Positions 1,917-31,510 of a stretch of DNA of 64,000 bases are shown in pieces (position 1 is the first letter of the stretch; every line of letters begins with the position of its first letter). The DNA lies in the NCBI GenBank assembly GCA_049287045.1, contig JBAQFC010000001.1, positions 67,309 to 131,308 of the forward strand, in the 5' to 3' direction. The stretch comes from Minisyncoccia bacterium. Lineage in GTDB: Bacteria > Patescibacteriota > Minisyncoccia > Phycocordibacterales > UBA9973. The notes under the pieces are model-generated. The model was not told the DNA's origin. It did not search any database and saw nothing but the letters and a program-made list of their open reading frames with translations. The translations under genes and the position numbers were made by a program.

Positions 1917-2528
1917 ATGTTTAATAATTTTTTTAATAGATTTAGTAAAAAAACAGAAGAAGTTAAAGAAGAAGATAAAAGAATAAATGAAAATGATTTA
2001 AAAGGTCATTTAAGAAAATATGTTCCTGTTGAAGATATATCTTCAGGTGATGAATGGGAAAGATATGGTGAGGATTCAGACAATCCTGAGGATGAAGAAA
2101 AGGCTAAATATGAATCAGTATTAACTTCTGACTCTCCATTGGAAGATCACGAGGAAGCATTTTTACATTCTTTAAAAGAAGAAACTGAAAATTCAATAGA
2201 GGTCAACGAAAAATTGATTGAAGAAGAAAGACAAAAATTATTTTCGCAGTTCGTAAAAGATGAAGAAAATAAAAATGGTTTTACAAAAATTGAAAATCTT
2301 AAAAAAGATTTTATTCCTGAGGAGAGACAAGAAAAAATAAATATAAAGGAAGAAAGAAAAATACAAACAACAATGAGTCCTTTGAAAAGAGTTTCTTCAC
2401 AGCAAGATGTTAGAAAAGAATTATGGCCTCGTTCTAAAAAGGATAATCTAAAAACAATGAATGATAAAAAGAAAGAAAGAGTAACTAGAGCTAAAATAGC
2501 TAAAATATTAGATTCTCAGCAGGGTTAA
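1917..2528 (+). CDS. Hypothetical acidic, K/E-rich protein
   Basis: 203 aa ORF of highly charged low-complexity composition with no recognisable domain. It follows pyrG after a (TAA)n run. Confidence 0.45.
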   Translation: MFNNFFNRFSKKTEEVKEEDKRINENDLKGHLRKYVPVEDISSGDEWERYGEDSDNPEDEEKAKYESVLTSDSPLEDHEEAFLHSLKEETENSIEVNEKLIEEERQKLFSQFVKDEENKNGFTKIENLKKDFIPEERQEKINIKEERKIQTTMSPLKRVSSQQDVRKELWPRSKKDNLKTMNDKKKERVTRAKIAKILDSQQG

Positions 2529-2544
2529 ATTAATAACTTAATTG

Positions 2545-2615
2545 TTGCGAGACTTGGACTCGAACCAAGATAACCTCCTCCAGAGGGAGGTGTCCTACCA
2601 TTAGACGATCTCGCA
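2545..2615 (-). tRNA. tRNA-Gln (anticodon CUG)
   Basis: The plus strand carries ggactcgaacc, the reverse complement of a T-arm GGTTCGAGTCC. On the minus strand a cloverleaf folds with a 7-bp acceptor stem TGCGAGA/TCTCGCA, D-arm GTCT..GGAC, anticodon stem CCTCC/GGAGG and loop CUCUGGA, giving anticodon CUG. Confidence 0.65.
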
Positions 2616-2656
2616 ATACGTATAGACTACCGTAAAATTTATATTTTTTCAAGTTA

Positions 2657-3121
2657 ATGACAAGGTTGAACCTTGTCAAAAAATATATGATTCATCTACA
2701 AAAACCAGAAAAATTCAATAGTAAATTTGAAGTTGTAAGTTGTTTCTTTGAACAGGATGGCAAGATTTTGTTGTTGCACCGTCAGGATCATAAGCCTCAA
2801 GGAAATACTTGGGGAGTTCCAGCTGGAAAAGTTGAAGATGGAGAAAATCCATTACAGGCAATAGTTCGAGAACTTGAAGAAGAAACTGGATATGGTGCGG
2901 ATGAAGACCAGTTTAAATTACTTGGTACAGTTTTTGTTCAATATCCAGATTATGATTTTATTTATTATACATTCTATTTTCCATTAACAGGAAATTACGA
3001 GGTAAAAATAGAATCAAAAGCTCATAAGGCTTTTGAGTGGATGACACCCGAAGATGCTCTAAATAAAGACTTGATTCCTGATTTGGATAATTGTATTAAA
3101 CTTTATTATAATCTTTCCTAA
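2657..3121 (+). CDS. Nudix hydrolase. The true start may be the ATG at 2687.
   Basis: Nudix box GKVEDGENPLQAIVRELEEETG. The first 10 codons overlap the 19-bp palindrome at 2659-2677. Confidence 0.8.
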   Translation: MTRLNLVKKYMIHLQKPEKFNSKFEVVSCFFEQDGKILLLHRQDHKPQGNTWGVPAGKVEDGENPLQAIVRELEEETGYGADEDQFKLLGTVFVQYPDYDFIYYTFYFPLTGNYEVKIESKAHKAFEWMTPEDALNKDLIPDLDNCIKLYYNLS

Positions 3122-3124
3122 TAT

Positions 3125-3149
3125 ACATAGGAAACTCCTATGTAGTCTA
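3125..3149. repeat. 25-bp hairpin-containing direct repeat ACATAGGAAACTCCTATGTAGTCTA, copy 1
   Basis: Identical to 3379-3403. Contains the palindrome CATAGG-AAACT-CCTATG. Confidence 0.8.
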
Positions 3150-3168
3150 GATAGTAATATTAAAAATC

Positions 3169-3384
3169 ATGAATAATAAAATACAATTAGGTAAATACGA
3201 ACATTATAAAGGAAATCAGTATGAAGTTATTGGAGTTGCGAAACACAGTGAGACTTTAGAAGATCTGGTTGTATATCGTGCTTTATATGGTGAAAATGAA
3301 TTGTGGGTCAGGCCATTAAAGATGTTTTTAGAAACAGTAGAAGTTGAAGGTAAACAAATTCCAAGGTTTAAGCTAATTACATAG
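3169..3384 (+). CDS. DUF1653 family small protein
   Basis: 71 aa with the signature YEHYKGNQYEV...HSET...VVYRALYG...WVRP typical of DUF1653. Confidence 0.65.
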   Translation: MNNKIQLGKYEHYKGNQYEVIGVAKHSETLEDLVVYRALYGENELWVRPLKMFLETVEVEGKQIPRFKLIT

Positions 3385-3403
3385 GAAACTCCTATGTAGT
3401 CTA
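3379..3403. repeat. 25-bp hairpin-containing direct repeat, copy 2
   Basis: Identical to 3125-3149. Overlaps the stop codon of the DUF1653 gene. Confidence 0.8.
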
Positions 3404-3417
3404 TGTAGTAAACAAAT

Positions 3418-3633
3418 ATGAAACAATTTATTATAATCCTACTGGCTATTATTTGTATTGCAGGCATTGTCGGCGCATTTTGGGCTGTTTTAGGACCTAC
3501 GCCTTTTAAGGCAATTGATAAGGATATTAACTTGGTTACAAAATCAATTAATATTATTTCTGGTAAAAATTCTCAACAGATTAAAAAAACTTCTGGTAAT
3601 AATACCAATATTATCAGTCCTATAAAGCAATAA
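3418..3633 (+). CDS. Small membrane-anchored hypothetical protein
   Basis: 71 aa ORF with an N-terminal TM helix. Confidence 0.35.
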   Translation: MKQFIIILLAIICIAGIVGAFWAVLGPTPFKAIDKDINLVTKSINIISGKNSQQIKKTSGNNTNIISPIKQ

Positions 3634-3650
3634 AGTTGCTTGTCATTTAA

Positions 3651-3669
3651 GACAAGGTTGAACCTTGTC
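3651..3669. promoter_or_regulatory. 19-bp perfect palindrome GACAAGGTTGAACCTTGTC. It also occurs at 2659-2677 and is a candidate operator.
   Basis: Exact duplicate of the site at 2659-2677 within conserved flanks (A(T/A)GACAAGGTTGAACCTTGTCAAAAA). Both lie immediately upstream of plus-strand genes. Confidence 0.5.
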
Positions 3670-3737
3670 AAAAACTTAATACTGAAAAACTTTCATGTTA
3701 TAATATATATATTATTAATTAGTTAAAAATAATTTTT

Positions 3738-4238
3738 ATGAATTTATCAAAAAGTTTTTGGGTTGTTGTAGCAATTGCTATTATTATTTTAAGTGGTTGG
3801 TATTTTATGTCGATGAAGTCTATACAAACAGAAGTGTATATGCCTTCTAGTACAGTTTTGAATACTATACCAGCTAAAACAACTAATGAGCCAATAGTTG
3901 CCGTATCAATTGTTACAGTTTCTTCTAGTTCAAAATTGGGTAGTTATTTAGTAGCGTCAAATGGAATGACATTGTATACATACGCCAAAGATACTGCGAA
4001 TGTAAGTAATTGTTCAGGTTCATGTGCTGTCAATTGGCCACCTTATTCTCCTTCAGCCAGCCAATCTATTGATTCCAATAATTCTATGAACGGTCAGCTT
4101 TCCACTATTAATCGTGCGGATGGTACTAAGCAATTCGCATACAAAGGAGCTCCTATTTATTTCTGGAAGAATGATACAAAACCAGGAGATACAACAGGAC
4201 AAGGTGTCGGTGGTATCTGGTATATTGTTCAACCCTAA
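3738..4238 (+). CDS. Secreted or lipoprotein-like protein with two PF03640-type (Yx[FWY]xxD) secreted repeats
   Basis: N-terminal TM/signal, then LGSYLVASNGMTLYTYAKD...CSGSCAVNWPP and a second GTKQFAYKGAPIYFWKND repeat. An extended -10 (TGTTATAAT) lies at 3696-3704. Confidence 0.55.
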   Translation: MNLSKSFWVVVAIAIIILSGWYFMSMKSIQTEVYMPSSTVLNTIPAKTTNEPIVAVSIVTVSSSSKLGSYLVASNGMTLYTYAKDTANVSNCSGSCAVNWPPYSPSASQSIDSNNSMNGQLSTINRADGTKQFAYKGAPIYFWKNDTKPGDTTGQGVGGIWYIVQP

Positions 4239-4267
4239 TTATTATTAGAAATTAATTATTTTATTTT

Positions 4268-4453
4268 ATGATGAAACTTGCTTGTAAAGATTTAAACCCT
4301 TCCACTACTTGTGCTTTTGAATCTACTGGAGATACAAAAGAAGAAGTAGCTAGTAGAATGATGGTTCATGCTAAGGTGGTTCATGCGGATGATTTAAAAA
4401 ATATGTCTGATGAGGATATCATAAAAATGATGGAATCAAAAGTTCACGAATAG
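4268..4453 (+). CDS. DUF1059 family small protein
   Basis: 61 aa; MKLACKDL...C.FE.TGDT.EEV...HAK.VH matches the DUF1059 pattern. Confidence 0.6.
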   Translation: MMKLACKDLNPSTTCAFESTGDTKEEVASRMMVHAKVVHADDLKNMSDEDIIKMMESKVHE

Positions 4454-4475
4454 TTTTTAAAATCAAGAATAAAAA

Positions 4476-4511
4476 CAGCCAGCACTCGAAAGAACGCTGG
4501 CTATTTTTATT
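4476..4511. terminator. Rho-independent terminator between convergent genes
   Basis: Hairpin CAGCCAGC-N12-GCTGGCT followed by ATTTTTATTT. Confidence 0.7.
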
Positions 4512-5154
4512 TAATAAACAATTTATGCAAGAATTTTAATATAGAAATAATTATTATCAGAACAATTTGGAAGATTATATTGATCAAAATAAGAGATATG
4601 GCGAGTAATCCTAGGTGAGTAAAGAAAGGCCAGGGGATGAATATTAAAATGATTATTAAAAACCATACATTTTTTAAGTCCTGCCACGATGGTCCTATCA
4701 TCGCTCCTATGTTCAAAAATAAAAATATTGTCACTAAATTTTTCCAATTTAGAATATTGATTTGTTTCAAAAAATTTAGAGAATCGGTCAATAAAAGTTT
4801 CCAGTTAGAAAATTCAGGCATGTGATAGATATTTATAAAAAAATATTCTCGGACAAAAAATAGAACTATTAATCCTCCAAAAATTGGAGCAATTGCAATC
4901 AGTAAATTGCCTAATATTGGTAACTTGGAACTAGAGTAAGAGACGCGTGGTTGATCTACAATAACTTTGTATTCACTAATTCTAGCACCAGTCAAAAGAC
5001 ACATAAGAGCATGAGAACTTTCGTGAATAAAAGCTCCGAAATAATAGAGTAAATAATTTATTTTGTAATTCAAAAAACGCCAATTCAGCCAGTTACTAAT
5101 ATAACCCAGAGTGCTGATTATTATGATAATTATTCCGATAGTCATCTCTTTCAC
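4507..5154 (-). CDS. Polytopic membrane protein with an HExxH motif, a putative membrane-embedded zinc metallopeptidase (DUF3267-like)
   Basis: 215 aa with multiple TM segments and FIHESSHALM (HExxH). Confidence 0.45.
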   Translation of the reverse strand: MKEMTIGIIIIIISTLGYISNWLNWRFLNYKINYLLYYFGAFIHESSHALMCLLTGARISEYKVIVDQPRVSYSSSKLPILGNLLIAIAPIFGGLIVLFFVREYFFINIYHMPEFSNWKLLLTDSLNFLKQINILNWKNLVTIFLFLNIGAMIGPSWQDLKNVWFLIIILIFIPWPFFTHLGLLAISLILINIIFQIVLIIIISILKFLHKLFIK

Positions 5155-5194
5155 AATATAAGGTTATCTGATTCAGTGTGATATAGCAAGAATT

Positions 5195-5230
5195 AAAAAA
5201 CTCTTCTAGTAATAAGAAGAGTTTTTTAAT
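5195..5230 (-). terminator. Rho-independent terminator for the minus-strand gene 5243-5623
   Basis: Hairpin AAAAAACTCTTC-N9-GAAGAGTTTTTT with a U-run on the minus strand. Confidence 0.6.
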
Positions 5231-5242
5231 TTATATATAAGA

Positions 5243-5623
5243 TTATTTTTTAGCTATTTTCTTAACAGCTTTTTTAACTTGTTTTTGGGCACCTTTCCAT
5301 TCGCTCTTTAGTTGTTTAGCAAAAGCTTTTATTTCAGGAGCATGTTCTTTGTATTGTTTACCATAACTTGCTGTAATAGCGTCTACTGCTTTATGATAAA
5401 CTGGTTCGGTAGCATTTTTGATTGTTGTTATTTTCTTTGCGACTTCTTTTTTCATGCTGGCCATCCAAACAGCAGCTTTCTTTTGATTCTTTTTACCGTT
5501 TGGTCCAAGGAAATAATAAGCTCCTGCTCCTAATGCTGCAACTCCTGCTCCTATTGCTAGTACTTTACCAGTTGATATTCCACTTTTCTTTGCTACTTTC
5601 TTTGCTACTTTTTTTTGTGCCAT
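5243..5623 (-). CDS. Hypothetical Lys/Ala-rich protein with one TM segment
   Basis: 126 aa ORF with KK-rich termini and a central hydrophobic segment. Confidence 0.4.
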   Translation of the reverse strand: MAQKKVAKKVAKKSGISTGKVLAIGAGVAALGAGAYYFLGPNGKKNQKKAAVWMASMKKEVAKKITTIKNATEPVYHKAVDAITASYGKQYKEHAPEIKAFAKQLKSEWKGAQKQVKKAVKKIAKK

Positions 5624-5662
5624 GATTTTAATTTATATTAATTATATTAAATGATTGTAATA

Positions 5663-5929
5663 TTATGATTTTGTTTTGGTTGCTTTTCGACCTTTTCTCT
5701 TTTTACCAAAAAGAAATTGAAACACTGCACTCTCTTGTATATCTAGAAATATATCTTTTGCTGTACCACTGATTGTATCTGCGTCTTTTTCTACTTTCTT
5801 TAAGATTCGTGAAAAGATGTGCATTATATTTATAAGATATAATAAAAATATTATAGCTAAAATCCACAACATAAAAAACCCGGCTGAAGAAATTAGAAAA
5901 AAAATCTCTGACTGTGCGTTTGTATTCAT
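5663..5929 (-). CDS. Small membrane hypothetical protein
   Basis: 88 aa with one TM helix and a basic C-terminus. Confidence 0.3.
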   Translation of the reverse strand: MNTNAQSEIFFLISSAGFFMLWILAIIFLLYLINIMHIFSRILKKVEKDADTISGTAKDIFLDIQESAVFQFLFGKKRKGRKATKTKS

Positions 5930-5964
5930 AGTTTTATTATACTACTTGTTTAATAAAAGGGGAA

Positions 5965-6972
5965 TTAGTTTATTTCGATATCAACATATAAAATCTGGGG
6001 GAATTTTTCTCGGATTCTTTTTTCTATTTTATCTATATGGTTGCCGACTAGTCGAGGGACACGGTCAGTCATTTTAAACATTAGTTTTGTAAATTCACTA
6101 AAATCATCTTTGATTTCATCAAATTCTTCTTTTAAATCACCGGCTCTATAGATTTCTTCATAAAGAGGTGAGCCATTCCATTCAACTGTGGCGTATATTC
6201 TGTATTGATTAATATCGACAGCAACAGATTTGAAATCTGAAATGTTTTCAATACAAGGATCCTCTAGTAAAAGTTCTGTTATCTCTTCTACAACTTCTTC
6301 GCTCAATGATTTACCTATGATATATTGATGATTCTTTTTAATTAGAAGAACAGCTAAAAATCCAAGAATCAGACCGATTATTATTCCACCGATTGCGTCA
6401 AAAACATTATTTCCTGTAAGGTACATCAAAAATTGAGCAAGCAAAGCAACTAAAACACCAATGACGGCCGCTCCATCTTCATAAACAACTGCCAAAGTAA
6501 CAGGATCAGCATCCTCAAAAATTTTCTTTGTAAATTTATCTTTACCCTTTAGTTCTTTAAAAGCAATAATTAAAGTAATTCCCTCGATTACAAAAGAAAT
6601 ACATAAAACAGAAATTATAAAATAGTTCAAACCAGAGACTTCACTACTATTATAGTGAATTAAAGAGTCTATTGAATGATACACAGTGATACCTGCACCA
6701 ATAAAAAGAATTCCACAGGCAGATATTAAAGACCAAAAAAATCTCTCAATACCGTAACCATACCCTCTAGAACTGTCCGCTGGTTTTTTAGATCTTTTTA
6801 AACCAACCAATAAAAGAGATTGATTGAGAGTATCAGCGAAACTATGCACGCTTTCAGCAAACATACTGGCAGATCCAGAAAAAAGGGCAACTATTGTCTT
6901 CATAATGGTGACAAAAATGTTGCCCAAAAGAGCTGCGATGACTGATTTATTACCTTGAGTTTTGTGTGACAT
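5965..6972 (-). CDS. Cation diffusion facilitator (CDF) family metal efflux transporter
   Basis: 335 aa; the N-terminal TM domain carries the HSFADTLNQ signature, and there is a C-terminal cytoplasmic domain. Confidence 0.85.
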   Translation of the reverse strand: MSHKTQGNKSVIAALLGNIFVTIMKTIVALFSGSASMFAESVHSFADTLNQSLLLVGLKRSKKPADSSRGYGYGIERFFWSLISACGILFIGAGITVYHSIDSLIHYNSSEVSGLNYFIISVLCISFVIEGITLIIAFKELKGKDKFTKKIFEDADPVTLAVVYEDGAAVIGVLVALLAQFLMYLTGNNVFDAIGGIIIGLILGFLAVLLIKKNHQYIIGKSLSEEVVEEITELLLEDPCIENISDFKSVAVDINQYRIYATVEWNGSPLYEEIYRAGDLKEEFDEIKDDFSEFTKLMFKMTDRVPRLVGNHIDKIEKRIREKFPQILYVDIEIN

Positions 6973-10469: not shown

Positions 10470-10694
10470 ATGTATATCAAAATAATAGTCATTAGTGGAG
10501 CCAAAAAGGAAAAAATCATTGAAAAATCAAAAGATCATTTTGATGTTTCGGTAAAAGAAAAAGCGGAAAAGAACATGGCCAACAAAAGAGCTATTGAACT
10601 TTTATCCTTACATTTTAAGGTGCCGACAGCAAAGGTTCGCATTGTAAATGGGCATCATCACCCTCACAAGCTTTTGGTAATAGATGTAGAATAA
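10470..10694 (+). CDS. DUF167 (YggU-like) family protein
   Basis: 74 aa; ...GAKKEKI....V.V.EKAEKNMANKRAIELLS..FKVPTAKVRIV.G matches the DUF167 pattern. Confidence 0.6.
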   Translation: MYIKIIVISGAKKEKIIEKSKDHFDVSVKEKAEKNMANKRAIELLSLHFKVPTAKVRIVNGHHHPHKLLVIDVE

Positions 10695-10709
10695 TGATAT
10701 AATAGCGGT

Positions 10710-11720
10710 ATGAAAATCACTTTTTTTGAGGTTTCTAAAGAGGAGCAAGATGTTCTAACCGCGTCTTTTTCTGGTTTAGATTTTAATATTTCTTTTTTTG
10801 AAGAAAAAATTAACGAAGAAAATGCACATTTAGCCCAAGATGCCGAAGTAGTTTCTGTTTTCGTTAATTCTGAGGTTAATAAAGAGATTATTGATCAACT
10901 TTCTAATCTTAAATTTATAGCGACACGTTCGACTGGTTTTGATCATATTGATGTTGGTTATTGTAATTCTAAAGGAATCCAAGTTTCAAACGTTCCTTCT
11001 TATGGGTCACGCACTGTTGCGGAGTTTGCTTTTAGTTTATTACTTTCAATTTCAAGAAAAGCCAGTATTGCCGGAAGACAGGTTTGTGATAAGAATGATT
11101 TTTCGCAAAATGGTTTCGAAGGTTTTGATCTTTTTGGTAAAACAATCGGTATTATAGGAACTGGTAAAATAGGTAAGAATGCTGCACGAATCGCCAAGGG
11201 TTTCGGTATGAGAGTATTAGCAACAGATCTTTACCCTGATAGTGTTTTTGGAGAAGAGGAAGGTGTTGAATATATACCTCTTCCAGAGCTTCTTTCTGCG
11301 TCAGATATTGTGACCATTCATGCCCCATACAATGAGACTACATTTCATTTGATAAATAAAGAAAATATTAAACAGTTTAAAAAAGGTGCATATTTGATTA
11401 ACACTGCACGCGGTGAAATCATTGAGACAGAAGCTCTATTGATGGGACTAAAAGAAGGTGTTCTTGCAGGTGCAGGTCTTGATGTTCTAGAGTCAGAAAG
11501 GAAATTAAAAGATGAAGTTAAGTTTCTTGCAAGTGGAAAAGCAACCGAAGAAGATAAAAAAATCCTTAGTTTAAATCATGAACTAATAAAAATGTCGAAT
11601 GTTATCATCACCCCACACATCGCTTTTTATACCAAGGAAGCTGTAGCTGATATCTTAAAAACAGCAGCTCAAAATATAAAAGACTTTGTTGACGGTAATC
11701 CAAACAATTTAGTTAAATAA
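10710..11720 (+). CDS. D-isomer-specific 2-hydroxyacid dehydrogenase (glycerate/hydroxypyruvate reductase or D-lactate dehydrogenase type)
   Basis: NAD-binding GKTIGIIGTGKIGKNAARIAKGFGMRVLATD and a catalytic His region TPHIAFYT. Confidence 0.85.
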   Translation: MKITFFEVSKEEQDVLTASFSGLDFNISFFEEKINEENAHLAQDAEVVSVFVNSEVNKEIIDQLSNLKFIATRSTGFDHIDVGYCNSKGIQVSNVPSYGSRTVAEFAFSLLLSISRKASIAGRQVCDKNDFSQNGFEGFDLFGKTIGIIGTGKIGKNAARIAKGFGMRVLATDLYPDSVFGEEEGVEYIPLPELLSASDIVTIHAPYNETTFHLINKENIKQFKKGAYLINTARGEIIETEALLMGLKEGVLAGAGLDVLESERKLKDEVKFLASGKATEEDKKILSLNHELIKMSNVIITPHIAFYTKEAVADILKTAAQNIKDFVDGNPNNLVK

Positions 11721-11721
11721 T

Positions 11722-13020
11722 ATGATAAAAAAGTGGATAAAAAATTCAGATGAATTACTTACCTCAAAAGGTGCTGATGGGGCAATCATAGAAAATCGTA
11801 AATTAGCCTTAGAGATAGCAGAAGCTGGGCTTGAATCAATAAATACTGAAAAAGTAATAATTAATTCTATTAAGTTAGAGAATAATATTTTATCTATTTT
11901 AGATCAGGATTTTGATTTAACTAAATTTAAGAGGATCAAGGTTGTTGGTTTTGGTAAGGCATCTTGTGAGGCGGCCTCTGCCTTTGAAAAAATATTAGGC
12001 TCAAAAATTAATGAAGGTGCAGTTATTGGATTAAATAAAATAACTTGTGATTATATTCAAACTTTTGCCGGAACACACCCTCGTCCTTCCGAAGTAAACA
12101 TTGAGGCTGGAAAGAAAATATACGAAATAGCTGATGGGTCAAAAGAAGATGATCTCTTGATTGCTATTGTTTCTGGTGGTGGATCAGCACTTCTTTGTTA
12201 TCCTGAGAGTGAGTGTACTCAAGGAAGAGAACTGTATGATGTTTTTTTGAAATGTGGACAAACAATTACAGAAATAAATACAATTAGAAAACATCTGTCT
12301 TTTTTGAAAGGTGGCGGTCTTGCTAAAATGGCTTATCCAGCGACAGTTATCGGCCTTATTTTTTCTGATGTCCCCGGAGACCGTTTTGAAGATGTAGCAT
12401 CAGGTCCGACTTACAAAGATGAGAGTACTATTCACCAGGCAGAGATGATTATTCATGAGCATAATTTGGGAAAATTTATTTTGTTTGAAACACCCAAGGA
12501 TGATAAATATTTTACGAAGGTCCATAATTTTGTTCTTGTTTCAAATAAGACAGCAGTAGAAGCGATGGCAGAAAAAGCAAAAGAGCTTGGTTTCGAGGCC
12601 AATATAATTTCTACAGAAATGTATGAGGAGGTGGATGAGTCTCTTAAAAAACTTTTTGCTGCAGAGAAAAACAATACAGTTGTGTTGGCTGCAGGTGAAC
12701 CAAAACTTGAAGTAAAGACAAAGGGTGGTAGTGGAGGACGAAGTCTTTTTATGGGGCTTCGAGCAGTTAAAGAAAAAATGACCAACACGGGTTCTGTTTT
12801 GATTCCACTTGCGTCAGATGGTATGGATAATTGTGATGCAGCTGGTGCAGTAATAGATAAAAGCACAATAGAAAAAATAGAAAAATTGGGATTAGATCTT
12901 GATGATTATCAATCTCGTTTTGATGCTTATCCGATTTTCCAAAAATCCGGTGATATGATTATGACCGGTGCTACTGGAGCAAATGTTTCAGATTTAATGA
13001 TTCTTTTAACAAAAAAATAA
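11722..13020 (+). CDS. Glycerate 2-kinase (MOFRL family)
   Basis: 432 aa with DUF4147/MOFRL-like motifs (LAAGEPKLEVKTKGGSGGRSLFMGLRAV). It sits 2 nt after the dehydrogenase gene. Confidence 0.75.
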   Translation: MIKKWIKNSDELLTSKGADGAIIENRKLALEIAEAGLESINTEKVIINSIKLENNILSILDQDFDLTKFKRIKVVGFGKASCEAASAFEKILGSKINEGAVIGLNKITCDYIQTFAGTHPRPSEVNIEAGKKIYEIADGSKEDDLLIAIVSGGGSALLCYPESECTQGRELYDVFLKCGQTITEINTIRKHLSFLKGGGLAKMAYPATVIGLIFSDVPGDRFEDVASGPTYKDESTIHQAEMIIHEHNLGKFILFETPKDDKYFTKVHNFVLVSNKTAVEAMAEKAKELGFEANIISTEMYEEVDESLKKLFAAEKNNTVVLAAGEPKLEVKTKGGSGGRSLFMGLRAVKEKMTNTGSVLIPLASDGMDNCDAAGAVIDKSTIEKIEKLGLDLDDYQSRFDAYPIFQKSGDMIMTGATGANVSDLMILLTKK

Positions 13021-13021
13021 A

Positions 13022-15094
13022 ATGGATAAAAAAATTACAAAAATAGAGGCAGAAGAAATAAAAGACTCACGAGGAACACCGACAATTAAAGTCACAGTTT
13101 GGGTGGGAGATAATTTCGCCAGTTTTTCTGTTCCGTCTGGAGCAAGTACCGGTGTTCATGAAGCACATGAACTTCGTGATGAAGATGGCAAAGGGGTAAA
13201 AAATGCTATTGGGAAGATAAATACTATTATTTCCGAGGCTTTAATTGGTAAAGATGTTCAAAATCAAAATGAAATAGATAGAATAATGATTAAGTTGGAC
13301 GGAACACCTAATAAAGACAACCTAGGTAGTAACTCCATGATTGGTGTCAGTATTGCGTGTGCTAAAGCTGCAGCAAAAGTTTTAGACATGGAAGTTTTTG
13401 AATACCTTAGGGCTCTTCCACTGGGCGCAGGGGAAGCGGTTAAAGAAATAAAGCCATCTAGAGCTGTGCCTTACTTGTACATGAATTTAATCAACGGTGG
13501 TAAACATGCAAAAAATGACTTAGCTTTTCAAGAATATCATATTGTGCCTGATACAAAAGACATAACAGAATCAGTTGAAATTGGTATTAAAATACAAAAT
13601 ACACTAAAAGAAATCATCGGTGGCGAATTGGGTCTTGAGTCTCTTTCATTGGGAGATGAAGGAGGTCTTGCTCCTAAAGTAAGTGATATCAGAAAACCTC
13701 TCGAATATTTGACTGAAGCATTAAAGAGAAATAATCTTTCGAACAAAGTTAGATTCGCGTTAGATGTTGCAGCTTCTTCTTTTTATATCGATGGTATGTA
13801 TAAGATTGGTGATAAAAAAGTTTCCAAAGATGAGCTTATGGAAATTTATAAAAAATTCATTCTCGAGTTCAACCTACTTTCTATTGAAGATCCTTTTGAT
13901 GAAGAAGATTTTGAAAGTTTCAGAAAACTAAAAGAAGAAAATAATAATTTATTGGTTGTTGGTGATGATTTGACTGTGACCAATAAAGTTCTTCTAAAAG
14001 AAGCTTTAGAAAAGGGAAGTGTTAATACAATAATCATAAAGCCGAACCAAATAGGTACTTTATCTGAAACACTAGAAACAATGCAATTAGCACGCGAAAA
14101 TAATATTAATATTATTGTCAGTCACCGTAGTGGAGAAACAGGTGATGATTTTATTGCTGACTTAGCTTACGCGTATGGTTGTTTTGGTCTTAAATCTGGT
14201 TCCCCAGTAAACCCGGAAAGAATGGTGAAGTATCAGAGATTAATAAAGATAACTCAAAAATATTTTTTAATGAAAGGGTCAAAGGCTCAAATAGTCGCGA
14301 CGATAGGACCTGCTTCTGGTGATAAAGAAATGATAAGAGACATGGTTAAACACCAGGCTGATGTCTTTCGTTTAAATTTCTCATGGGGTACATACGAAGA
14401 ACATGCTGTATATATAAAAAATATCCGTGAAGTATCAGAAGATTTAGCAAAAAGAATTCCAATAATTCAAGATTTGTCTGGTCCGAGAGTTCAAGAAAAG
14501 TCTGGTCATGAATTCAATAAAGAATCTGTGACACTTCTTTCACAAAAAGATATAGCTGATTTAATTTTTGGTATTGGACAAGGAGTTGACTATGTTGCTA
14601 TGTCTTATGTTGGAAGTGCAAAAGATGTTTTGGAGTTACGAGAAAAAATAAAAGAACTTACCCCTGTCCGTCCAGGTGGAGTTGTAAAAGTTACTCCAAT
14701 TATTGCTAAAATTGAACGTAAAGTTGCATTAGATAATATTGATGAAATTATAGAAGTTGCGGATGCGATAATGATAGCTAGAGGGGATATGGGTAATGAG
14801 GTTCCTCTTGAAAAGATCCCTTTTATAGAAAAGGAAATTATCGAGAAAGCTAAAAAAGCCGGTAAACCAGTAATCGTTGCTACTCAAATGATGCTTTCTA
14901 TGACTGAAAATAAGCTTCCAACACGCGCCGAAGTGACCGATGTAGCATATGCAATAATTTCTGGTGCTGATGCCGTCATGCTCTCAGAGGAAAGTGCGTC
15001 TGGAAAGCATCCTTTAGAAGCTGTTGAAATGATGGAAAAAGGAGTTTTTGAGGCTGAAAAACATATCAAAAATTTAGTGATTAATGCATTATAG
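13022..15094 (+). CDS. eno: Fused enolase (about 410 aa) plus a minimal pyruvate kinase catalytic barrel (about 275 aa)
   Basis: Enolase is supported by SHRSGETGDDFIADLAYAYG. Pyruvate kinase is supported by IVATIGPAS...FRLNFSWG...IARGDMGNEVP...TQMMLSM...PTRAEVTDVAYA...MLSEESASGKHP. The result is a single uninterrupted 690 aa ORF. Confidence 0.85.
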   Translation: MDKKITKIEAEEIKDSRGTPTIKVTVWVGDNFASFSVPSGASTGVHEAHELRDEDGKGVKNAIGKINTIISEALIGKDVQNQNEIDRIMIKLDGTPNKDNLGSNSMIGVSIACAKAAAKVLDMEVFEYLRALPLGAGEAVKEIKPSRAVPYLYMNLINGGKHAKNDLAFQEYHIVPDTKDITESVEIGIKIQNTLKEIIGGELGLESLSLGDEGGLAPKVSDIRKPLEYLTEALKRNNLSNKVRFALDVAASSFYIDGMYKIGDKKVSKDELMEIYKKFILEFNLLSIEDPFDEEDFESFRKLKEENNNLLVVGDDLTVTNKVLLKEALEKGSVNTIIIKPNQIGTLSETLETMQLARENNINIIVSHRSGETGDDFIADLAYAYGCFGLKSGSPVNPERMVKYQRLIKITQKYFLMKGSKAQIVATIGPASGDKEMIRDMVKHQADVFRLNFSWGTYEEHAVYIKNIREVSEDLAKRIPIIQDLSGPRVQEKSGHEFNKESVTLLSQKDIADLIFGIGQGVDYVAMSYVGSAKDVLELREKIKELTPVRPGGVVKVTPIIAKIERKVALDNIDEIIEVADAIMIARGDMGNEVPLEKIPFIEKEIIEKAKKAGKPVIVATQMMLSMTENKLPTRAEVTDVAYAIISGADAVMLSEESASGKHPLEAVEMMEKGVFEAEKHIKNLVINAL

Positions 15095-15131: not shown

Positions 15132-15518
15132 ATGAAAATAAATCTTCAAGCAAAGAATATGGAGTTAACACCAGCAATACATGATTATGTATTGGAAAGA
15201 GTCACCAATTTAGGAAAATTACTTTCTAAAATGGAAGAAAAAGGTGGGGAAGTTTTAGTAGTTTTTGATGTTGCTAAAACAACCAATCATCACAAGGCAG
15301 GAGAAATCTTTCGTGCCGACTGTACTATCACTGTGGATGGAAATAAATTTTATTCAAGTTCTGATAAGTCAGATCTTTACGCTGCAGTAGATGATGTAAA
15401 GGAAAATATTTTCCATGAAATAACTCGTGCTAAAGCAAAGAAACAACATCTATTCCGTCGTGGTGCACAAAAGGTAAAGGACCTAATGAAAGGCTTTACT
15501 TCTTTTGGGAAGAAATAA
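15132..15518 (+). CDS. hpf: Ribosome hibernation promoting factor (short HPF/RaiA)
   Basis: 128 aa; MKINLQAKNMELTPAIHDYVLERV.. is typical of the sigma54-modulation/YfiA family. Confidence 0.8.
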   Translation: MKINLQAKNMELTPAIHDYVLERVTNLGKLLSKMEEKGGEVLVVFDVAKTTNHHKAGEIFRADCTITVDGNKFYSSSDKSDLYAAVDDVKENIFHEITRAKAKKQHLFRRGAQKVKDLMKGFTSFGKK

Positions 15519-16341
15519 AAACAGAATATTCCATTTCTTTTTTTCCTTCAGGCAACACTCTTTTTATTACAAAAAGGGTGTTTTCTATTGTGGCATCAGT
15601 GATGATAATTCTTTTACCTCCATTGATAAAAAAAGTTCTTGGCCAAACATAATAAGCTTTAAACTTATTAAAGTTTTTAATAGGGTCATCAGACAAGTTT
15701 ATCAATCCATCTTCTTTCTTTATTTTTTTAGTATAAGTTGCTTTTGTCTCATCCTGTGGAGTAGATTTTATTTTTTCATCTATAATATTTGGTAAAATTT
15801 TAACAAGAAGCTCTCCGCCTGTTTTTATTAAACGTTCTCGTAGTTCAAAAGCTTTTTCGAGGCTGTGTATTGGTACTTTTTCTTCGGTAATGATTGGTCC
15901 GGCATCCATTTTATATTCCATTTTTTGAATACTAATACCAGTCTGTTCATCTCCGTTTAGAATTGCTGATTCCACGGGTGAGGCTCCTCGATACTTTGGA
16001 AGTAGAGAATAATGAATATTTATGGAGCCTAATCTAGGTGCATTTATTATCTCTTCAGGCATTATTTTTCCATAAGCGACAACAATACTAATGTCAGATT
16101 TTTGTAGTAAAGGAAGATCACTTTTTAGTTCATCTAATTTTTCTGGTTGTAGATATGGAATGTTGTTTGCTATTGCCCATGTCTTTGTGGGTGGAGGAGT
16201 TATAATCATTTTACGTCCTTGTGGTTTGTCAGGGGAAGTAATAATGAGGGATGGCAAAAAACCATTTTGTTTTAAAATCTCTAAAGTATCTCTAGCCACA
16301 TCTGGTGTGCCCCAAAAAATAAAGTTTATTTTTTTACTCAT
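15496..16341 (-). CDS. fmt: Methionyl-tRNA formyltransferase. The start is set at the internal Met that overlaps the def stop; the ORF extends to 16476.
   Basis: MSKKINFIFWGTPDVA... formyltransferase N-domain. The gene overlaps the def stop by 8 nt. Confidence 0.85.
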   Translation of the reverse strand: MSKKINFIFWGTPDVARDTLEILKQNGFLPSLIITSPDKPQGRKMIITPPPTKTWAIANNIPYLQPEKLDELKSDLPLLQKSDISIVVAYGKIMPEEIINAPRLGSINIHYSLLPKYRGASPVESAILNGDEQTGISIQKMEYKMDAGPIITEEKVPIHSLEKAFELRERLIKTGGELLVKILPNIIDEKIKSTPQDETKATYTKKIKKEDGLINLSDDPIKNFNKFKAYYVWPRTFFINGGKRIIITDATIENTLFVIKRVLPEGKKEMEYSVFISSQKK

Positions 16342-20400: not shown

Positions 20401-22224
20401 ATGGAAACAATGGAAATAGTAAAAACAAAAGTTATCTCAATTAATGAGAACTCAGAAATTCTGATACCTTATGATTACCAAGAACCAGTAATTGAAAAAT
20501 TAATGGATTTTGTACAGGAAAATGAAAATAAACCATTCGCAACAGGATTCGTGGTTATGCCAGGAGGTTCTGGTAAAACTGTAATTTTTGCTCATTTGGT
20601 TAAAAGATTAAACCATCGTGTTATTATTGCTTCTCCGACTTTGACTATTTCAGATCAAAATCTTGAAACAATCAGACAAGTAAACCCTGGTCTTAAAATT
20701 AGTGTTTACTATGATGGTGAAAGGGATTTAACAGGTGATGTAATTTTTATTACATATCATTCTCTTATGAGAGTTTTGGCTAGCGAATCAATACCTCGTG
20801 ATTTTGCGAGATATGTTTTATTTGATGAGGCGCATAGAGCGCTTTCACCAGCTAGGTCTAAAATTATTGAAAAGCTGAATGCAGTATGTATTGGTTTTAC
20901 AGCGACTGATAAATTTTCTGAACAAAAAAATGTTGAGAAAAATTTCAAAAATGAAATCTACCGGATGTCTTTAAAAGAGGCTATTGAAATGGGAATTTTG
21001 CTGCCGCTTCGTGGGTATATTGTAGAAACTCAAATTAATTTGAGAGGAGTTCAGTTATCACACAGAAATCAACTTAATGAAAAAGCAGCAGAAAAATATT
21101 TAAACATTGCAGCTAGAAATCAGGTTGCTAGAGATTTTTATTTAAAAAATTTCAAAGGTATACCTGCTGTAGCTTTTTGTATAAGTATTAATCATGCGGT
21201 AGAGCTTGCAAAGTATTTTTCTTTATCTGGTATCAAAGCAGTGGCTGTTCATTCTAAAATCACTAAAGACAAAAGACGTGAAATCTTTTCTGAATATAGA
21301 AAAGGTAATATAGATGTTTTGTGTTCGTGTGATTTATTAATTGAAGGCTGGAATTCTAAGCGTGTTACAGTCGAACTCAATCTAAGACCTACTTATTCTT
21401 GGGTTTTGGCTGAACAAAGAGCTTGCAGAGTAATTAGACCTTTTATTGGGAAAGAAGCTGGAATCATCGTGGAGTTTCAAGATATCTATAGTAAAAAAGA
21501 TCAACATATTTTAGTTCATCATTTATTTGGAAATCGAGAGTATACCCAAGGTGGTTACATTGCTGCACCTAGTAAAATAATGCGAGCAGAAAGGCAAATG
21601 CTGGAAAATAATAATCCAGTTTATGTTTTTGATAACCTAAAAGTTTCTTCTATTGTCCGTGAGGTTGTAAATTTAAAACCAATTATCTCTGATAAAGCCT
21701 TCGGGAACAAAGAGTTGATTAAAGAAATTTTACTTTCTCGCGCAGATGTAAACTACAACGATTTGAAAGTTAGAGCTTTTATGGATCTCGAGTTCAATCA
21801 TTGGCTTTTCAAAGGTAAAGGGCAGTCTCTTATGAAAAAACATCTTGGAATGTTATGGCAAGGTTCTAAAGAAGATTATGAACTTTTTATGTATGACATT
21901 TTGGGTGTGCATCTCTTTAATGAAACTTTTTCTTTGCTTGGAGAAGATATAGAAAATGTGGCTGAAACTTTTGACCCATTAAAAACGAGTATGGACAAGG
22001 AAGTAATACGCAGGTTTGTTAATTTAATCTATAACGACAAAGAGAAACGTATAATTAAATTATACTTTGGTTTTGAATCTGTTAATGGTGAAGGAATGGA
22101 ATTAGAAGAAATAGGAGAAATACTTTCCTTAACAAGAGAAAGAGTGAGGCAAATTAAAGAAAGAGGTATAAGAAATCTTAGAAGATACTTTAAAGAACAT
22201 AAAGTTGGTATTGTTTCAATTTAA
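20401..22224 (+). CDS. SF2 DEAH-type helicase fused to a C-terminal sigma70 region-4-like HTH
   Basis: Helicase motifs I (GGSGKT), II (DEAH), III (TAT) and VI (QRACRVIR). The last 70 aa, ...GMELEEIGEILSLTRERVRQIKERGIRNLRRY, match sigma70 region 4.2. Confidence 0.7.
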   Translation: METMEIVKTKVISINENSEILIPYDYQEPVIEKLMDFVQENENKPFATGFVVMPGGSGKTVIFAHLVKRLNHRVIIASPTLTISDQNLETIRQVNPGLKISVYYDGERDLTGDVIFITYHSLMRVLASESIPRDFARYVLFDEAHRALSPARSKIIEKLNAVCIGFTATDKFSEQKNVEKNFKNEIYRMSLKEAIEMGILLPLRGYIVETQINLRGVQLSHRNQLNEKAAEKYLNIAARNQVARDFYLKNFKGIPAVAFCISINHAVELAKYFSLSGIKAVAVHSKITKDKRREIFSEYRKGNIDVLCSCDLLIEGWNSKRVTVELNLRPTYSWVLAEQRACRVIRPFIGKEAGIIVEFQDIYSKKDQHILVHHLFGNREYTQGGYIAAPSKIMRAERQMLENNNPVYVFDNLKVSSIVREVVNLKPIISDKAFGNKELIKEILLSRADVNYNDLKVRAFMDLEFNHWLFKGKGQSLMKKHLGMLWQGSKEDYELFMYDILGVHLFNETFSLLGEDIENVAETFDPLKTSMDKEVIRRFVNLIYNDKEKRIIKLYFGFESVNGEGMELEEIGEILSLTRERVRQIKERGIRNLRRYFKEHKVGIVSI

Positions 22225-22380: not shown

Positions 22381-23155
22381 CTGCGTTAGGTCTTGCCTAA
22401 CGCAGAACTTTGTAATTTAGCCAATCAAAAATTTCTTTCATAAAATACTCCTTTTTTGGAAAATAATTTGGGAAAGATTTTATATCTATTATTTTATTCT
22501 GTGGTCTTTTCTTTTCAATAAAATCTAGATAACTTGAGTAACTATAATTACTTAAATATATTATAGATTCTATTTTATTTTTTATTTCTTTTTCTTTCCA
22601 GTCTTTATCTATCAATTTTATTGGATTTAAATGAATATATGAAAATAAGTATTTTAAATAATTATCATTGTCTGCATGCTCAGATTTAAACTTTCCTTCA
22701 AAAAGTCCACCAGTTCTTTTGTATTTATTATTGTAGTACATAGCATAAGCTGTGCTTAATTTTTGCATAAATTTACTTATTCCACCTTCAATTTTTTCTG
22801 TTATTAAAATATGAAAATGATTCGGCATTAGACAATATGCACCAATGGCAACTAAATTATTTATTCTTTCAATTTCATAAATATCAAAATCTTTATTTCT
22901 TTTAAGATCATATAAATTAAAATTTTGATCTGTATTTGATATGAAAAGTAAACTTATAAAATAATTATAATCTTGTTTGTCTTGGAATATTCTTTGTTTA
23001 CTATTACCACGATTATATATATGATAATATTCGCCTTCAACAAAATTTACTTTGCGTATAGACATACAATAAATTTATCATAATCACTCCGCATTAGGCA
23101 ATTTACGTTAGGCAAGACCTAACGCAGCATTACGAACAGAGACCTAACGCAGACT
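22381..23155 (-). mobile_element. IS200/IS605-type or RAYT-like element: a Y1 HUH transposase gene bounded by inverted REP-type hairpins
   Basis: The left end is CTGCGTTAGG-TCTTG-CCTAACGCAG (22381-22405). The right end is its reverse complement CGTTAGG-CAAGA-CCTAACGCAG (23106-23127), with partial extra copies at 23089-23101 and 23140-23155. Confidence 0.7.
22397..23065 (-). CDS. IS200-like/REP-associated tyrosine (Y1, HUH) transposase
   Basis: GEYYHIYNRGNSKQRIF...AYCLMPNHFHILI (HuH motif), with the catalytic Tyr region in the C-terminal half. Confidence 0.8.
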   Translation of the reverse strand: MSIRKVNFVEGEYYHIYNRGNSKQRIFQDKQDYNYFISLLFISNTDQNFNLYDLKRNKDFDIYEIERINNLVAIGAYCLMPNHFHILITEKIEGGISKFMQKLSTAYAMYYNNKYKRTGGLFEGKFKSEHADNDNYLKYLFSYIHLNPIKLIDKDWKEKEIKNKIESIIYLSNYSYSSYLDFIEKKRPQNKIIDIKSFPNYFPKKEYFMKEIFDWLNYKVLR

Positions 23156-30285: not shown

Positions 30286-30286
30286 T

Positions 30287-30781
30287 ATGAAAATATTTAT
30301 CGCATCAGATCATGCTGGTTATGATTTAAAAGAAAAACTTCGAGATTTTTTAGTTGATCTTGGACATGAAGCTGAGGACAAGGGTCCTTTGATTTTTGAT
30401 GCGAATGATGATTATCCTGATTATATAAAACTAGTTGCTGAGGCTGTCGCTAGAAATCCAGAAGGAAGTTTTGGTATTGTTATTGGTGGTAGTGGGCAAG
30501 GGGAAGCGATAGTTGCCAATCGGGTACCGGGTGTTCGTGCAATGACTTTTTATGGACCAAGACTTCCATTAGGAGATATCAATATTGAAGGACATCACAG
30601 TGATGATCCATATGAAATAGTCAGACTTGCACGACAGCACAACGATGCAAATATTTTATCCATTGGTGCACGTTTTGTTTCTGAAGAAGAAGCGAGACAA
30701 GCGATTTTGATTTTTATGGATACAGAATTTTCAAACGAAGAAAGACATTTTAGAAGAATTAAAAAAATAGATAACAAATAA
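30287..30781 (+). CDS. rpiB: Ribose-5-phosphate isomerase B
   Basis: MKIFIASDHAGYDLKE..., RpiB/LacA family. Confidence 0.9.
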   Translation: MKIFIASDHAGYDLKEKLRDFLVDLGHEAEDKGPLIFDANDDYPDYIKLVAEAVARNPEGSFGIVIGGSGQGEAIVANRVPGVRAMTFYGPRLPLGDINIEGHHSDDPYEIVRLARQHNDANILSIGARFVSEEEARQAILIFMDTEFSNEERHFRRIKKIDNK

Positions 30782-30784
30782 TAT

Positions 30785-31501: not shown

Positions 31502-31510
31502 TAATACTAA

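Follow-up and report, generated by a model that had tools for sequence, protein, structure and literature searches.

An enolase fused to a putative lidless pyruvate kinase in a glycerate kinase gene cluster of a CPR bacterium

Here, we show that a 690-aa open reading frame in the window, the whole stretch of 64,000 nucleotides that was analysed, joins a complete enolase in frame to a minimal pyruvate kinase (PK), the latter belonging to a large, apparently undescribed family of lidless PKs. With a probability of about 0.72, we favor an overall reading in which a genuine stop-loss fusion would take 2-phosphoglycerate (2-PG) to pyruvate, with a glycerate kinase (GK) upstream and an LdhA-type dehydrogenase (DH) leading on to D-lactate.

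Results

The cluster consists of three genes, which like all features described below lie on the forward strand, and whose Pfam, NCBIfam and alignment matches are all far beyond chance. ORF1 (10710..11720) encodes an NAD-dependent D-2-hydroxyacid dehydrogenase of 336 aa, LdhA-type by Pfam, PDB matches and signature alignment; ORF2 (11722..13020) encodes a class II (MOFRL) GK of 432 aa; and ORF3 (13022..15094) encodes the fusion, as identified by Pfam and NCBIfam. Each gene is separated from the next by 1 nt (TAA-T-ATG and TAA-A-ATG), not by the 2 nt given in the preliminary description. The compact cluster described there is borne out and is also conserved among relatives, where DH, GK and eno/PK stay together down to about 50% identity in variable gene order (L004, L008, L014). 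Directly upstream of ORF1 lies a 74-aa gene of the DUF167/YggU family (10470..10694; Pfam PF02594, E 5e-15), and downstream of ORF3 a ribosome hibernation factor gene (S30AE/HPF, 15132..15518), both keeping these positions in the relatives L001, L005 and L010. The HPF gene, with a terminator-like hairpin behind it at 15554-15582, is probably co-transcribed with the three genes but does not belong to the metabolic module. A promoter-like site (TTGGTA-18-TATAAT with extended TG, 10674..10703) is located 7 nt 5' of the DH start codon, and is weak evidence because shuffled sequence contains at least as many sites of this kind as the region does. GAPDH, RpiB, Rpe and transketolase are also encoded within the window, the GAPDH gene 14 kb downstream of the cluster. 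The host is a CPR/Paceibacteria bacterium with a tiny genome.

The enolase domain of ORF3 (aa 1-410, 13022..14251) is complete, as proposed earlier. Enolase_N and Enolase_C cover aa 5-412 (E 8e-46 and 2e-74), the NCBIfam equivalog TIGR01060 matches at 415 bits, well above its cut-off of 300, all E. coli Eno catalytic residues are present in the alignment (S39, H162, E171, E213, D248, E289, D316, K340, H368, K391), and Foldseek returns enolase 2pa6 at a TM of 0.90. The PK domain (aa 417-690, 14270..15094) comprises the A-domain TIM barrel only. Pfam matches the barrel in two stretches (E 1.6e-73) with profile positions of roughly 77-170, the B domain, missing between them, and the C domain is absent since there is no sequence beyond the barrel. 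The PK equivalog TIGR01064 scores 306.3 bits, marginally below its cut-off of 306.4, as expected with two of the three PK domains missing. The AF2 model of the minimal PK (pLDDT 90.5, pTM 0.89) resembles PK A domains at a TMq of 0.82-0.88 and ~42% identity (Foldseek). Both the in-frame 690-aa fusion, together with its in-frame relatives, and the reduction of the PK part to an A domain, seen also in the alignment to PykF and PDB PKs, are thereby confirmed.

Is the minimal PK a peculiarity of the fusion? It is not: standalone mini-PKs of about 265 aa form a widespread family, abundant in Paceibacterota, and the homologues are 258-278 aa long in 120/120 matches listed. Alignment to PK structures, proposed earlier as a check, reveals that the catalytic Lys, Glu and Asp and the metal ligands are all retained in the fusion (R450, N452, S454, D484, K563, E565, D589, T621, S655, E657). 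Across 127 mini-PKs aligned at 45-75% identity, R32, N34, S36, D66, K220, E222, G245, D246, T278, S312 and E314 (PykF numbering) do not vary in any sequence. Judged from these residues, the lidless PK is likely to be an active kinase.

In the same comparison with E. coli PykF and PDB PKs, PykF residues 74-166 are replaced by ~13 residues. Alignment and models describe this segment as a short beta-hairpin (D484-L485-S486-G-P-R489-V-Q491...G-H496-E-F-N..., 14471..14542), with the strands modelled at low confidence (pLDDT 54-68). Its D, L, G, P, R and H, the last being H496 of the loop, are invariant across mini-PKs. In the monovalent-cation site, L485 corresponds to position 113 of rabbit PK and R489 to position 117, and both Leu113 and Arg117 (rabbit numbering) are found in 127/127 mini-PKs; K+-independent PKs carry an L113/K117 signature (PMC8835810, PMC4284704). 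As Arg at 117 provides the charge, the mini-PK would probably work without K+.

ORF2 matches DUF4147 (E 9e-61) and MOFRL (E 7e-22) and has PDB homologues 1x3l and 2b8n. Every characterised class II GK makes 2-PG (PMC2063504), and the window GK is predicted to do the same. The proposal that a MOFRL glycerate 2-kinase feeds enolase is supported by these domains and by GK-eno fusions in other lineages. The combinations found are PK-eno (P0243), GK-eno-PK (P0244, with an LdhA-type DH overlapping its upstream end), GK-eno (P0314, on 6 contigs), eno-GK (P0117), GK-PK (P0375) and His_Phos_1-PK, a PGM-like-PK fusion (P0384), of which P0243, P0244, P0375 and P0384 each come from one contig only; in L097, a PGM-like gene overlaps a PK-eno fusion. 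That the same parts are fused in such varied combinations across lineages argues strongly for a module leading from 2-PG via PEP to pyruvate.

The fusion junction (ACT CAA AAA TAT TTT TTA ATG, T Q K Y F L M, 14252..14272) has at its end the ancestral PK start codon (ATG 14270-14272), as comparison with the unfused L001 indicates, and linker aa 416-418 have low pLDDT. The syntenic L001 locus reads DH, GK, a 143-aa ORF, eno, TAA-TT-ATG, a 271-aa pyk, then HPF, fmt, def and hisS, so that eno and pyk are separate and 2 nt apart at the junction site (...AAA CCA TAA TT ATG...). Loss of the stop codon between two such adjacent genes would have created the fusion ORF. The PK domain of each fusion clade matches unfused mini-PKs at 76-83%, versus 63-69% for other fusion clades. 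The minimal PK predates the fusion and is not a product of it, and the fusion is a secondary event that has arisen repeatedly.

Discussion

Could the fused ORF be an assembly or sequencing artefact? The window junction rests on a T6 homopolymer (14263-14268), and a true T5 run would bring back a TAA stop overlapping the PK ATG, leaving two genes as in the nearest unfused relative. We regard this as highly improbable. The Logan assembly of SRR28062869, made with a different assembler, matches the window base for base across 7,103 bp, junction included; a further MAG protein, 97% identical, shares the 690-aa ORF without gaps; and L005, which comes from a different sample and is 85% identical, stays in frame with TAT TTT TTG ATG, TTG replacing TTA. 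A search of related genomes, as suggested beforehand, found fusions at 97%, 85/83%, 66/63% and 51% identity with differing linkers. In five further fusion lineages, two of them recovered from two samples each, the linker contains no homopolymer. Unrelated linkers are seen in L003, L004, L006/L007 (two samples) and L008/L009 (two samples). The fusion is genuine and not an assembly error. It is also unlikely, if less strikingly so, that the lidless domain is no productive PK and serves instead as, perhaps, a PEP phosphatase, an oxaloacetate decarboxylase, an enzyme for another phosphoryl acceptor, or a scaffold or regulatory partner of enolase. In canonical PKs, the nucleotide phosphates are held by residues of the hinge and the B domain (rabbit Arg119 and Lys206). 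Here Gln stands at position 119 and the remainder of the B domain is missing, so the efficiency of the mini-PK could be low or its chemistry altered; the slightly low TIGR01064 score and a literature search that found no biochemical report on the minimal PK point the same way. However, the A-domain residues for PEP, Mg2+ and proton transfer are all invariant in the 127 sequences, the lid-replacement loop is itself strongly constrained, with GPR and His invariant, and the genes around it (eno, GK, PGM-like, DH) always point to lower glycolysis. In addition, a fermenter with few ATP-yielding steps seems unlikely to retain a pure PEP phosphatase so widely.

The role of the DH is more disputable. 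Pfam (2-Hacid_dh and 2-Hacid_dh_C, E 3e-53) upholds the D-2-hydroxyacid dehydrogenase assignment of the preliminary description, whereas several observations speak against the hydroxypyruvate/glycerate role given there. The best PDB matches are all D-LDHs (3kb6, 221 bits; E. coli LdhA, 5z1z, 208 bits), the only ones to align over the full length, and in an alignment with E. coli LdhA, GhrA, GhrB and SerA as references the DH shows the LdhA-type hallmarks VPxY, PHIAF and, ahead of the catalytic His, a long insertion, all of which GhrB-type and SerA-type enzymes lack. In L012, L013, L015 and L016, moreover, a DH adjoins the mini-PK without a GK within 6 kb. On these grounds a step from pyruvate to D-lactate is no less likely than one from hydroxypyruvate to glycerate, and we predict a D-lactate dehydrogenase that would act in the direction of pyruvate reduction. 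A hydroxypyruvate reductase/D-glycerate dehydrogenase feeding GK, for instance in serine or glyoxylate catabolism, is a possibility that we hold tentatively: reduction of hydroxypyruvate is common among enzymes of the D-LDH clade, only 1 nt separates the DH gene from the GK gene, and in NCBIfam glyoxylate reductase (215 bits) comes near VanH/D-LDH (239 bits), all under cut-off. The DH of the P0031-lineage cluster is GhrB-type, of the glyoxylate/hydroxypyruvate reductase clade, and the neighboring DH is GhrB-type and not LdhA-type in L008, L013, L015 and L016, so that the role is not uniform across lineages. Beyond the LdhA-clade markers and the adjacency to PK, this alternative is countered by the finding of no aminotransferase or other hydroxypyruvate source in the window, and by the window GAPDH, which creates a need for an NADH sink.

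In the D-lactate reading that we prefer, the MOFRL kinase would provide 2-PG from D-glycerate, and the fusion would most likely turn 2-PG into PEP and use this with ADP to form pyruvate and ATP, the PK probably operating without K+ and without allosteric control. At the pathway end, the LdhA-type DH would reduce the resulting pyruvate to D-lactate and re-oxidise NADH from the GAPDH encoded downstream. The fusion may also permit substrate channelling.

How does this system relate to known ones? Compared with canonical PKs (E. coli PykF, human PKM2, M. tuberculosis PYK), the A-domain barrel is ~42% identical and keeps the catalytic and metal-binding residues, whereas a ~13-aa hairpin stands in for the B lid, Trp mostly takes the place of the His at PykF position 37 in mini-PKs, and the window PK domain is joined to enolase. 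Canonical PKs close the active site with the B domain. Without a C domain, the mini-PK has neither the known allosteric site nor the C-C tetramer interface. With K+-independent PKs (Lys117/Leu113 cluster; PMC8835810, PMC4284704, PMC5501398), mini-PKs share Leu113 and a basic residue at 117, although this residue is Arg and not Lys, position 114 is Ser and not Gln, and the known enzymes retain their B and C domains.

The route from class II GK over enolase to PK is found in non-phosphorylative Entner-Doudoroff (ED) and glycerate pathways, and Pseudomonas fluorescens has a GK-II/PK gene cluster (PMC2063504). The order from glycerate over 2-PG and PEP to pyruvate and the clustering of GK-II with PK are the same here; in contrast, the spacing is 1 nt, eno and PK are fused, GK is also fused in other lineages, and no upstream ED or glyoxylate-carboligase genes lie near the window cluster. 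Consecutive glycolytic steps are likewise joined in one polypeptide in the PGK-TPI fusion of Thermotoga, with a different enzyme pair. The same holds for the TPI-GAPDH fusion of stramenopiles (PMC3527533), while our literature search found no report of an enolase-PK fusion. Finally, the Arabidopsis PGAM-enolase-PK complex (PMC7481185, PMC9553893) is non-covalent and eukaryotic and contains a full-length PK, yet it physically associates the same three lower-glycolysis steps, and has its CPR counterpart in the His_Phos_1-PK fusions, the PK-eno fusions and the PGM-like gene adjoining a PK-eno fusion.

An in-frame enolase–pyruvate kinase fusion

Three plus-strand ORFs within positions 10710–15094 of the window encode proteins of 336, 432 and 690 aa, which Pfam and NCBIfam class as a D-isomer 2-hydroxyacid dehydrogenase (DH, 10710–11720), a DUF4147 + MOFRL protein (the glycerate kinase GK, 11722–13020) and an enolase–pyruvate kinase (PK) protein (13022–15094). 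The genes had been described as lying 2 nt apart; read from the sequence, both spacers are single nucleotides instead (TAA-T-ATG before GK, TAA-A-ATG before the fusion). A DUF167/YggU-family gene (10470–10694, +) lies directly upstream of DH and keeps this position in the loci L001, L005 and L010 of other genomes. GC content in the window is 30–37%, and a promoter and terminator scan of the region gave results no better than shuffled sequence. The NCBI entry for the exact fusion protein is MFZ2205051.1, "MAG: pyruvate kinase [Minisyncoccia bacterium]", which places its source among the CPR/Paceibacteria.

The fusion contains a complete enolase (aa 5–412; NCBIfam TIGR01060, 415.3 bits, cut-off 300) with both the N-terminal capping domain and the C-terminal barrel (Pfam Enolase_N and Enolase_C). 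Residues S39, H162, E171, E213, D248, E289, D316, K340, H368 and K391 match the catalytic residues of E. coli Eno, the functions looked for being the Lys/Glu acid–base pair, the three Mg2+ carboxylates, the Ser loop and the phosphate/carboxylate-binding His/Arg/Lys, and all ten are kept in every fused form examined (9/9). From its equivalog score and catalytic residues, the domain is predicted to be a phosphopyruvate hydratase (EC 4.2.1.11). The fusion matches the PDB enolase 2pa6 with a Foldseek TM of 0.90; enolases were the only matches in the whole-fusion Foldseek search, and the PK domain was therefore modelled by itself.

Is the fused reading frame genuine? Enolase passes into PK through ACT CAA AAA TAT TTT TTA ATG AAA (aa 411–418), in which the ATG at 14270–14272 evidently once served as the PK start. 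An assembly error in a homopolymer is a legitimate suspicion here, as positions 14263–14268 form a run of six T and one T fewer would create a TAA stop overlapping that ATG. The counter-evidence is strong, however: a separate Logan assembly of SRR28062869 is identical to the window across 7,103 bp, the 690-aa protein of a second MAG aligns without gaps at 97% identity, and a relative of 85% identity from another sample (L005) reads TAT TTT TTG ATG, in frame. Moreover, fusions with dissimilar, non-homopolymer linkers, one of 30 residues, are present in L003, L004, L006/L007 (two samples) and L008/L009 (two samples). The single fused ORF of the preliminary description thus holds, and the fusion recurs in several related loci, including L003–L009. 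Programmed frameshifting at the T6 run was discarded, as the assembled ORF is in frame and the junction homopolymer is absent in other lineages.

The locus L001 (GCA_023267435.1) has the same synteny as the window (DH, GK, eno, pyk, HPF, fmt, def, hisS), with a 411-aa enolase that ends in TAA and a 271-aa PK that begins 2 nt later; this unfused arrangement is likely the ancestral state. In the window's fusion clade, the PK domain is 76–79% identical to its nearest unfused counterpart, and the clades of the fused proteins P0004 and P0005 give 83% and 79%, respectively, compared with 63–69% among the three fusion clades. That the fusions are nearer to unfused PKs than to one another and have unrelated linkers indicates at least three independent enolase–PK fusions, and probably five.

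A pyruvate kinase reduced to its barrel

PF00224 recognizes the (beta/alpha)8 barrel of the PK half (248 bits, cut-off 30) as two stretches, with the B-domain section of the profile missing between them, and the match ends where the barrel ends. The B (lid) domain, normally placed between beta3 and alpha3, is absent; residues 74–166 of E. coli PykF are without counterpart and a hairpin of about 13 residues stands in their place. Also absent is the C-terminal alpha/beta domain, with its allosteric site and tetramer interface, as the protein ends about 20 residues past the last barrel helix. Because both domains are missing, the NCBIfam equivalog TIGR01064 falls 0.1 bit short (306.3 bits against 306.4). 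In an AlphaFold (AF2) model, the isolated domain has a pLDDT of about 90 and a pTM of 0.89, the lid replacement being a short hairpin of lower confidence than the barrel. Foldseek aligns the model solely with canonical PKs (top 50 all PKs; TMq 0.82–0.88, about 42% identity), and the PDB sequence matches of this half are all full-length PKs. Profile, PykF alignment and model therefore agree with the original observation of a PK lacking lid and C-terminal domain.

All A-domain catalytic residues are in place: R450, N452, S454, D484, K563, E565, D589, T621, S655 and E657, that is R72, N74, S76, D112, K269, E271, D295, T327, S361 and E363 in rabbit numbering. In an alignment of the family, 127 of 127 members are invariant at the PykF positions R32, N34, S36, D66, K220, E222, G245/D246, T278, S312 and E314, which correspond in that order to the same rabbit residues, G245/D246 being G294/D295. 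The segment that replaces the lid carries a motif, DL(S/P)GPR...H, that is invariant at Gly, Pro, Arg and His (H496 of the fusion), and the position following RxNxS is mostly occupied by Trp where PykF has His. From residue conservation and context we infer that this minimal PK converts PEP + ADP to pyruvate + ATP (EC 2.7.1.40).

In the alignment with PykF, position 113 of the minimal PKs is always Leu and position 117 always Arg, while position 119 is Gln as opposed to Arg in canonical PKs. Leu113 together with a basic residue (Lys) at 117 has been tied to K+-independent PKs (PMC8835810, PMC4284704), the signature comprising Lys117 with Leu113, Gln114 and Leu/Ile/Val120 (PMC8835810). Measured against it, the minimal PKs have Leu113 and a basic residue at 117, but this is Arg; position 114 is Ser, and 120 lies inside the replaced segment.

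The matches listed for the PK half alone, at least 120, are all 258–278 aa long with PK as the sole Pfam domain, and their source names, where given, are Paceibacterota, Patescibacteria group or plain "bacterium". A scan of genome contigs for motifs common to all PKs returned at least five minimal PK loci among the matches listed, and canonical B-domain PKs in Buchananbacteria, one Saccharibacteria MAG and a Parcubacteria CG11 MAG. As these other sampled CPR lineages keep the B domain, its loss appears to be lineage-specific. The minimal PK predates the fusion and has the wider distribution.

L017 (Nanoarchaeia), initially a candidate for a reduced B domain, encodes a canonical three-domain PK instead. 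An ORF of about 245 aa in an uncultured archaeon (L042, CAZILS010000004.1, 5971–6750) is PK-like and reduced further than the CPR form: the D112-x-x-G-P strand is missing and S76 is replaced by Lys, with K269, E271, D295, T327, S361 and E363 kept. This may represent an independent reduction of PK in DPANN-like archaea. The window fusion also contains two insertions of 8 residues each, PLGAGEAV in the enolase (13418–13441) and TPVRPGGV in the PK (14660–14683), common only to the 97%-identical P0391 and absent from all other aligned homologues; P0121 has an insertion at the PK site too, but a different one.

Glycerate kinase and the fusion network

The assignment of the second gene as a MOFRL glycerate 2-kinase is borne out by its class II layout of DUF4147 and MOFRL (PF13660, 206 bits; PF05161, 78 bits) and by the PDB homologues 1x3l (E 1e-54) and 2b8n (E 5e-51). 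GK scores 196 and 194 bits against NCBIfam equivalog thresholds of 550 and 670, which belong to archaeal, lineage-specific models. Characterised MOFRL glycerate kinases all make 2-phosphoglycerate (2-PG; PMC2063504), and from the family and its fusions to enolase we infer the same product here.

The module of DH, GK and enolase/PK recurs at about 50% identity in varied gene order: DH-GK-eno-PK, unfused, in L014; GK, eno-PK fusion and DH in L008; and DH, GK, one further gene and the eno-PK fusion in L004. An all-against-all search of representative proteins recovered, from other CPR lineages, PK-eno in reverse order (P0243). Further architectures are a GK-eno-PK triple fusion of 1,092 aa (P0244), GK-eno (P0314, on 6 contigs of Candidatus Kaiserbacteria), eno-GK (P0117), GK-PK (P0375) and a His_Phos_1 (PGM-like)-PK protein (P0384). 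Most of these alternative architectures are known from one contig each, and the representative library, which clusters fusions under unfused enolases, shows architectures and gives no fusion counts. A PGK-enolase fusion of 845 aa was also found (P0366 is listed with this group). In L096, an LdhA-type DH overlaps the triple fusion (2279–5557) by 4 nt, and in L097 there is an overlap between a PGM-like gene and the PK-eno fusion (4001–6040). Together, the fusions form a strong and classic Rosetta-stone pattern that joins a supplier of 2-PG (GK or PGM-like), enolase and the minimal PK.

The genes seen in the window include none for PGK, PGM or a canonical PK. A second sugar-metabolism cluster (29257–33430, +) encodes GAPDH, RpiB, ribulose-phosphate 3-epimerase and a transketolase split into separate genes for its N and C halves, with a PfkB-family kinase encoded on the other strand (34705–35736, −). 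The window also holds type IV pilus genes, an IS200-like Y1 transposase domain protein of 222 aa (22397–23065, −) and a 607-aa protein of unusual architecture, with a ResIII/DEAD helicase core and a C-terminal sigma-70 region 4 (20401–22224, +). A 4,186-aa ORF (49042–61602, +), with no Pfam domain detected in its first 1,500 residues, occupies a stretch of GC 0.40–0.42 compared with about 0.33 elsewhere and is followed by an FG-GAP/Por_Secre_tail protein (61753–63675).

Substrate of the dehydrogenase

What does the dehydrogenase reduce? LdhA-type, NAD-dependent D-lactate dehydrogenases (D-LDHs) are marked by the Tyr of VPxY (Tyr101 in L. bulgaricus) and, around the catalytic His, by a long insertion ahead of it and a Phe three residues past it (Phe299). 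DH has the catalytic Arg/Glu/His together with NVPSY, a 44-residue Glu-to-His spacing and PHIAFYT; VPxY, the long insertion and PHIAF are common to DH and E. coli LdhA and are not found in GhrA, GhrB or SerA. Its best PDB relatives are D-LDHs (Aquifex 3kb6, 221 bits; E. coli LdhA, 208 bits), the only ones to align end to end; glyoxylate reductases and PGDHs cover just residues 44–268 or so. The NCBIfam models place VanH first (239 bits), followed by glyoxylate reductase (215), PGDH (204) and the D-LDH subfamily (189), all below cut-off. In L012, L013, L015 and L016, DH adjoins PK with no GK within 6 kb, and the window encodes GAPDH, which needs a sink for NADH and therefore also counts toward lactate formation. 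On these grounds we favour pyruvate to D-lactate over hydroxypyruvate reduction, at roughly 60:35. GhrB-type dehydrogenases (PHIASA, no insertion) lie near eno/PK in L008 (4548–5519), L013 (6796–7779), L015 (4382–5359) and L016 (4374–5354), and the gene has thus been replaced non-orthologously between lineages. Of the proposed hydroxypyruvate-to-pyruvate route, the fusion and the minimal PK remain, as does the dehydrogenase family; the LdhA-type signatures speak against the glycerate/hydroxypyruvate substrate, and DH probably acts at the opposite end.

Discussion

In the working that we propose, the MOFRL kinase would convert D-glycerate + ATP to 2-PG, the enolase half would dehydrate 2-PG to PEP, and the PK half would phosphorylate ADP from PEP on a barrel that has neither lid nor allosteric control and probably works independently of K+. 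The charge would come from R489, and the conserved hairpin with H496 may clamp the phosphate or form a minimal lid. Pyruvate would then be reduced to D-lactate by the LdhA-type enzyme. The enolase–PK unit would handle 2-PG from upper glycolysis too. The covalent link guarantees 1:1 stoichiometry and proximity; true substrate channelling by the fusion is speculative.

The canonical PK tetramer cannot form, as the C domain is missing; enolase dimerisation and the PK A–A interface could allow another assembly. It is conceivable, if unlikely, that the minimal PK is not self-sufficient and that its open site is completed or shielded by a partner such as the conserved C-terminal tail, an oligomer of its own or enolase, whether fused or bound. 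Lower glycolysis in Paceibacteria would then be an obligate enolase–PK metabolon (with or without GK or PGM) in which PEP is passed directly from site to site, and this dependence would have left its trace in the genomes as repeated, independent fusions. That fusions recur in every order suggests that ultra-small CPR cells keep the ATP-yielding steps at the end of glycolysis physically together.

PK is a textbook enzyme whose plan of A barrel, B lid and C regulatory domain is regarded as essentially universal, and the catalytic cycle as generally accepted includes closure of the B domain. A natural lidless PK, its activity so far predicted from conservation and context, would surprise enzymologists and, at about 265 aa, would define a minimal PK. 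A large natural family without B and C domains, with every catalytic residue of the barrel strictly constrained, is a ready-made test of lid and allosteric function. The window protein is annotated simply as "pyruvate kinase", and threshold-based annotation can miss a PK scoring just below an equivalog cut-off; such omissions may contribute to the patchy PK reported in Parcubacteria (e.g. PMC4508563).

A full-text literature search, limited and thus not proof of novelty, found no description of an enolase–PK fusion or of a PK without a B domain. The PK family lacking B and C domains, the fusion, and the network of GK, enolase, PK and PGM-like proteins are absent from the literature searched; the component families are known. 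The closest comparators for the PK half are canonical and K+-independent PKs. For the pathway, a near comparator is the lower shunt from class II glycerate kinase through enolase to PK in non-phosphorylative Entner–Doudoroff/glycerate pathways, and the classical coupled glycerate kinase assay uses exactly GK, enolase, PK and LDH (PMC2063504). TPI-GAPDH is another glycolytic fusion (PMC3527533), whereas the PGAM–enolase–PK complex of Arabidopsis is, unlike the fusion described here, non-covalent (PMC7481185).
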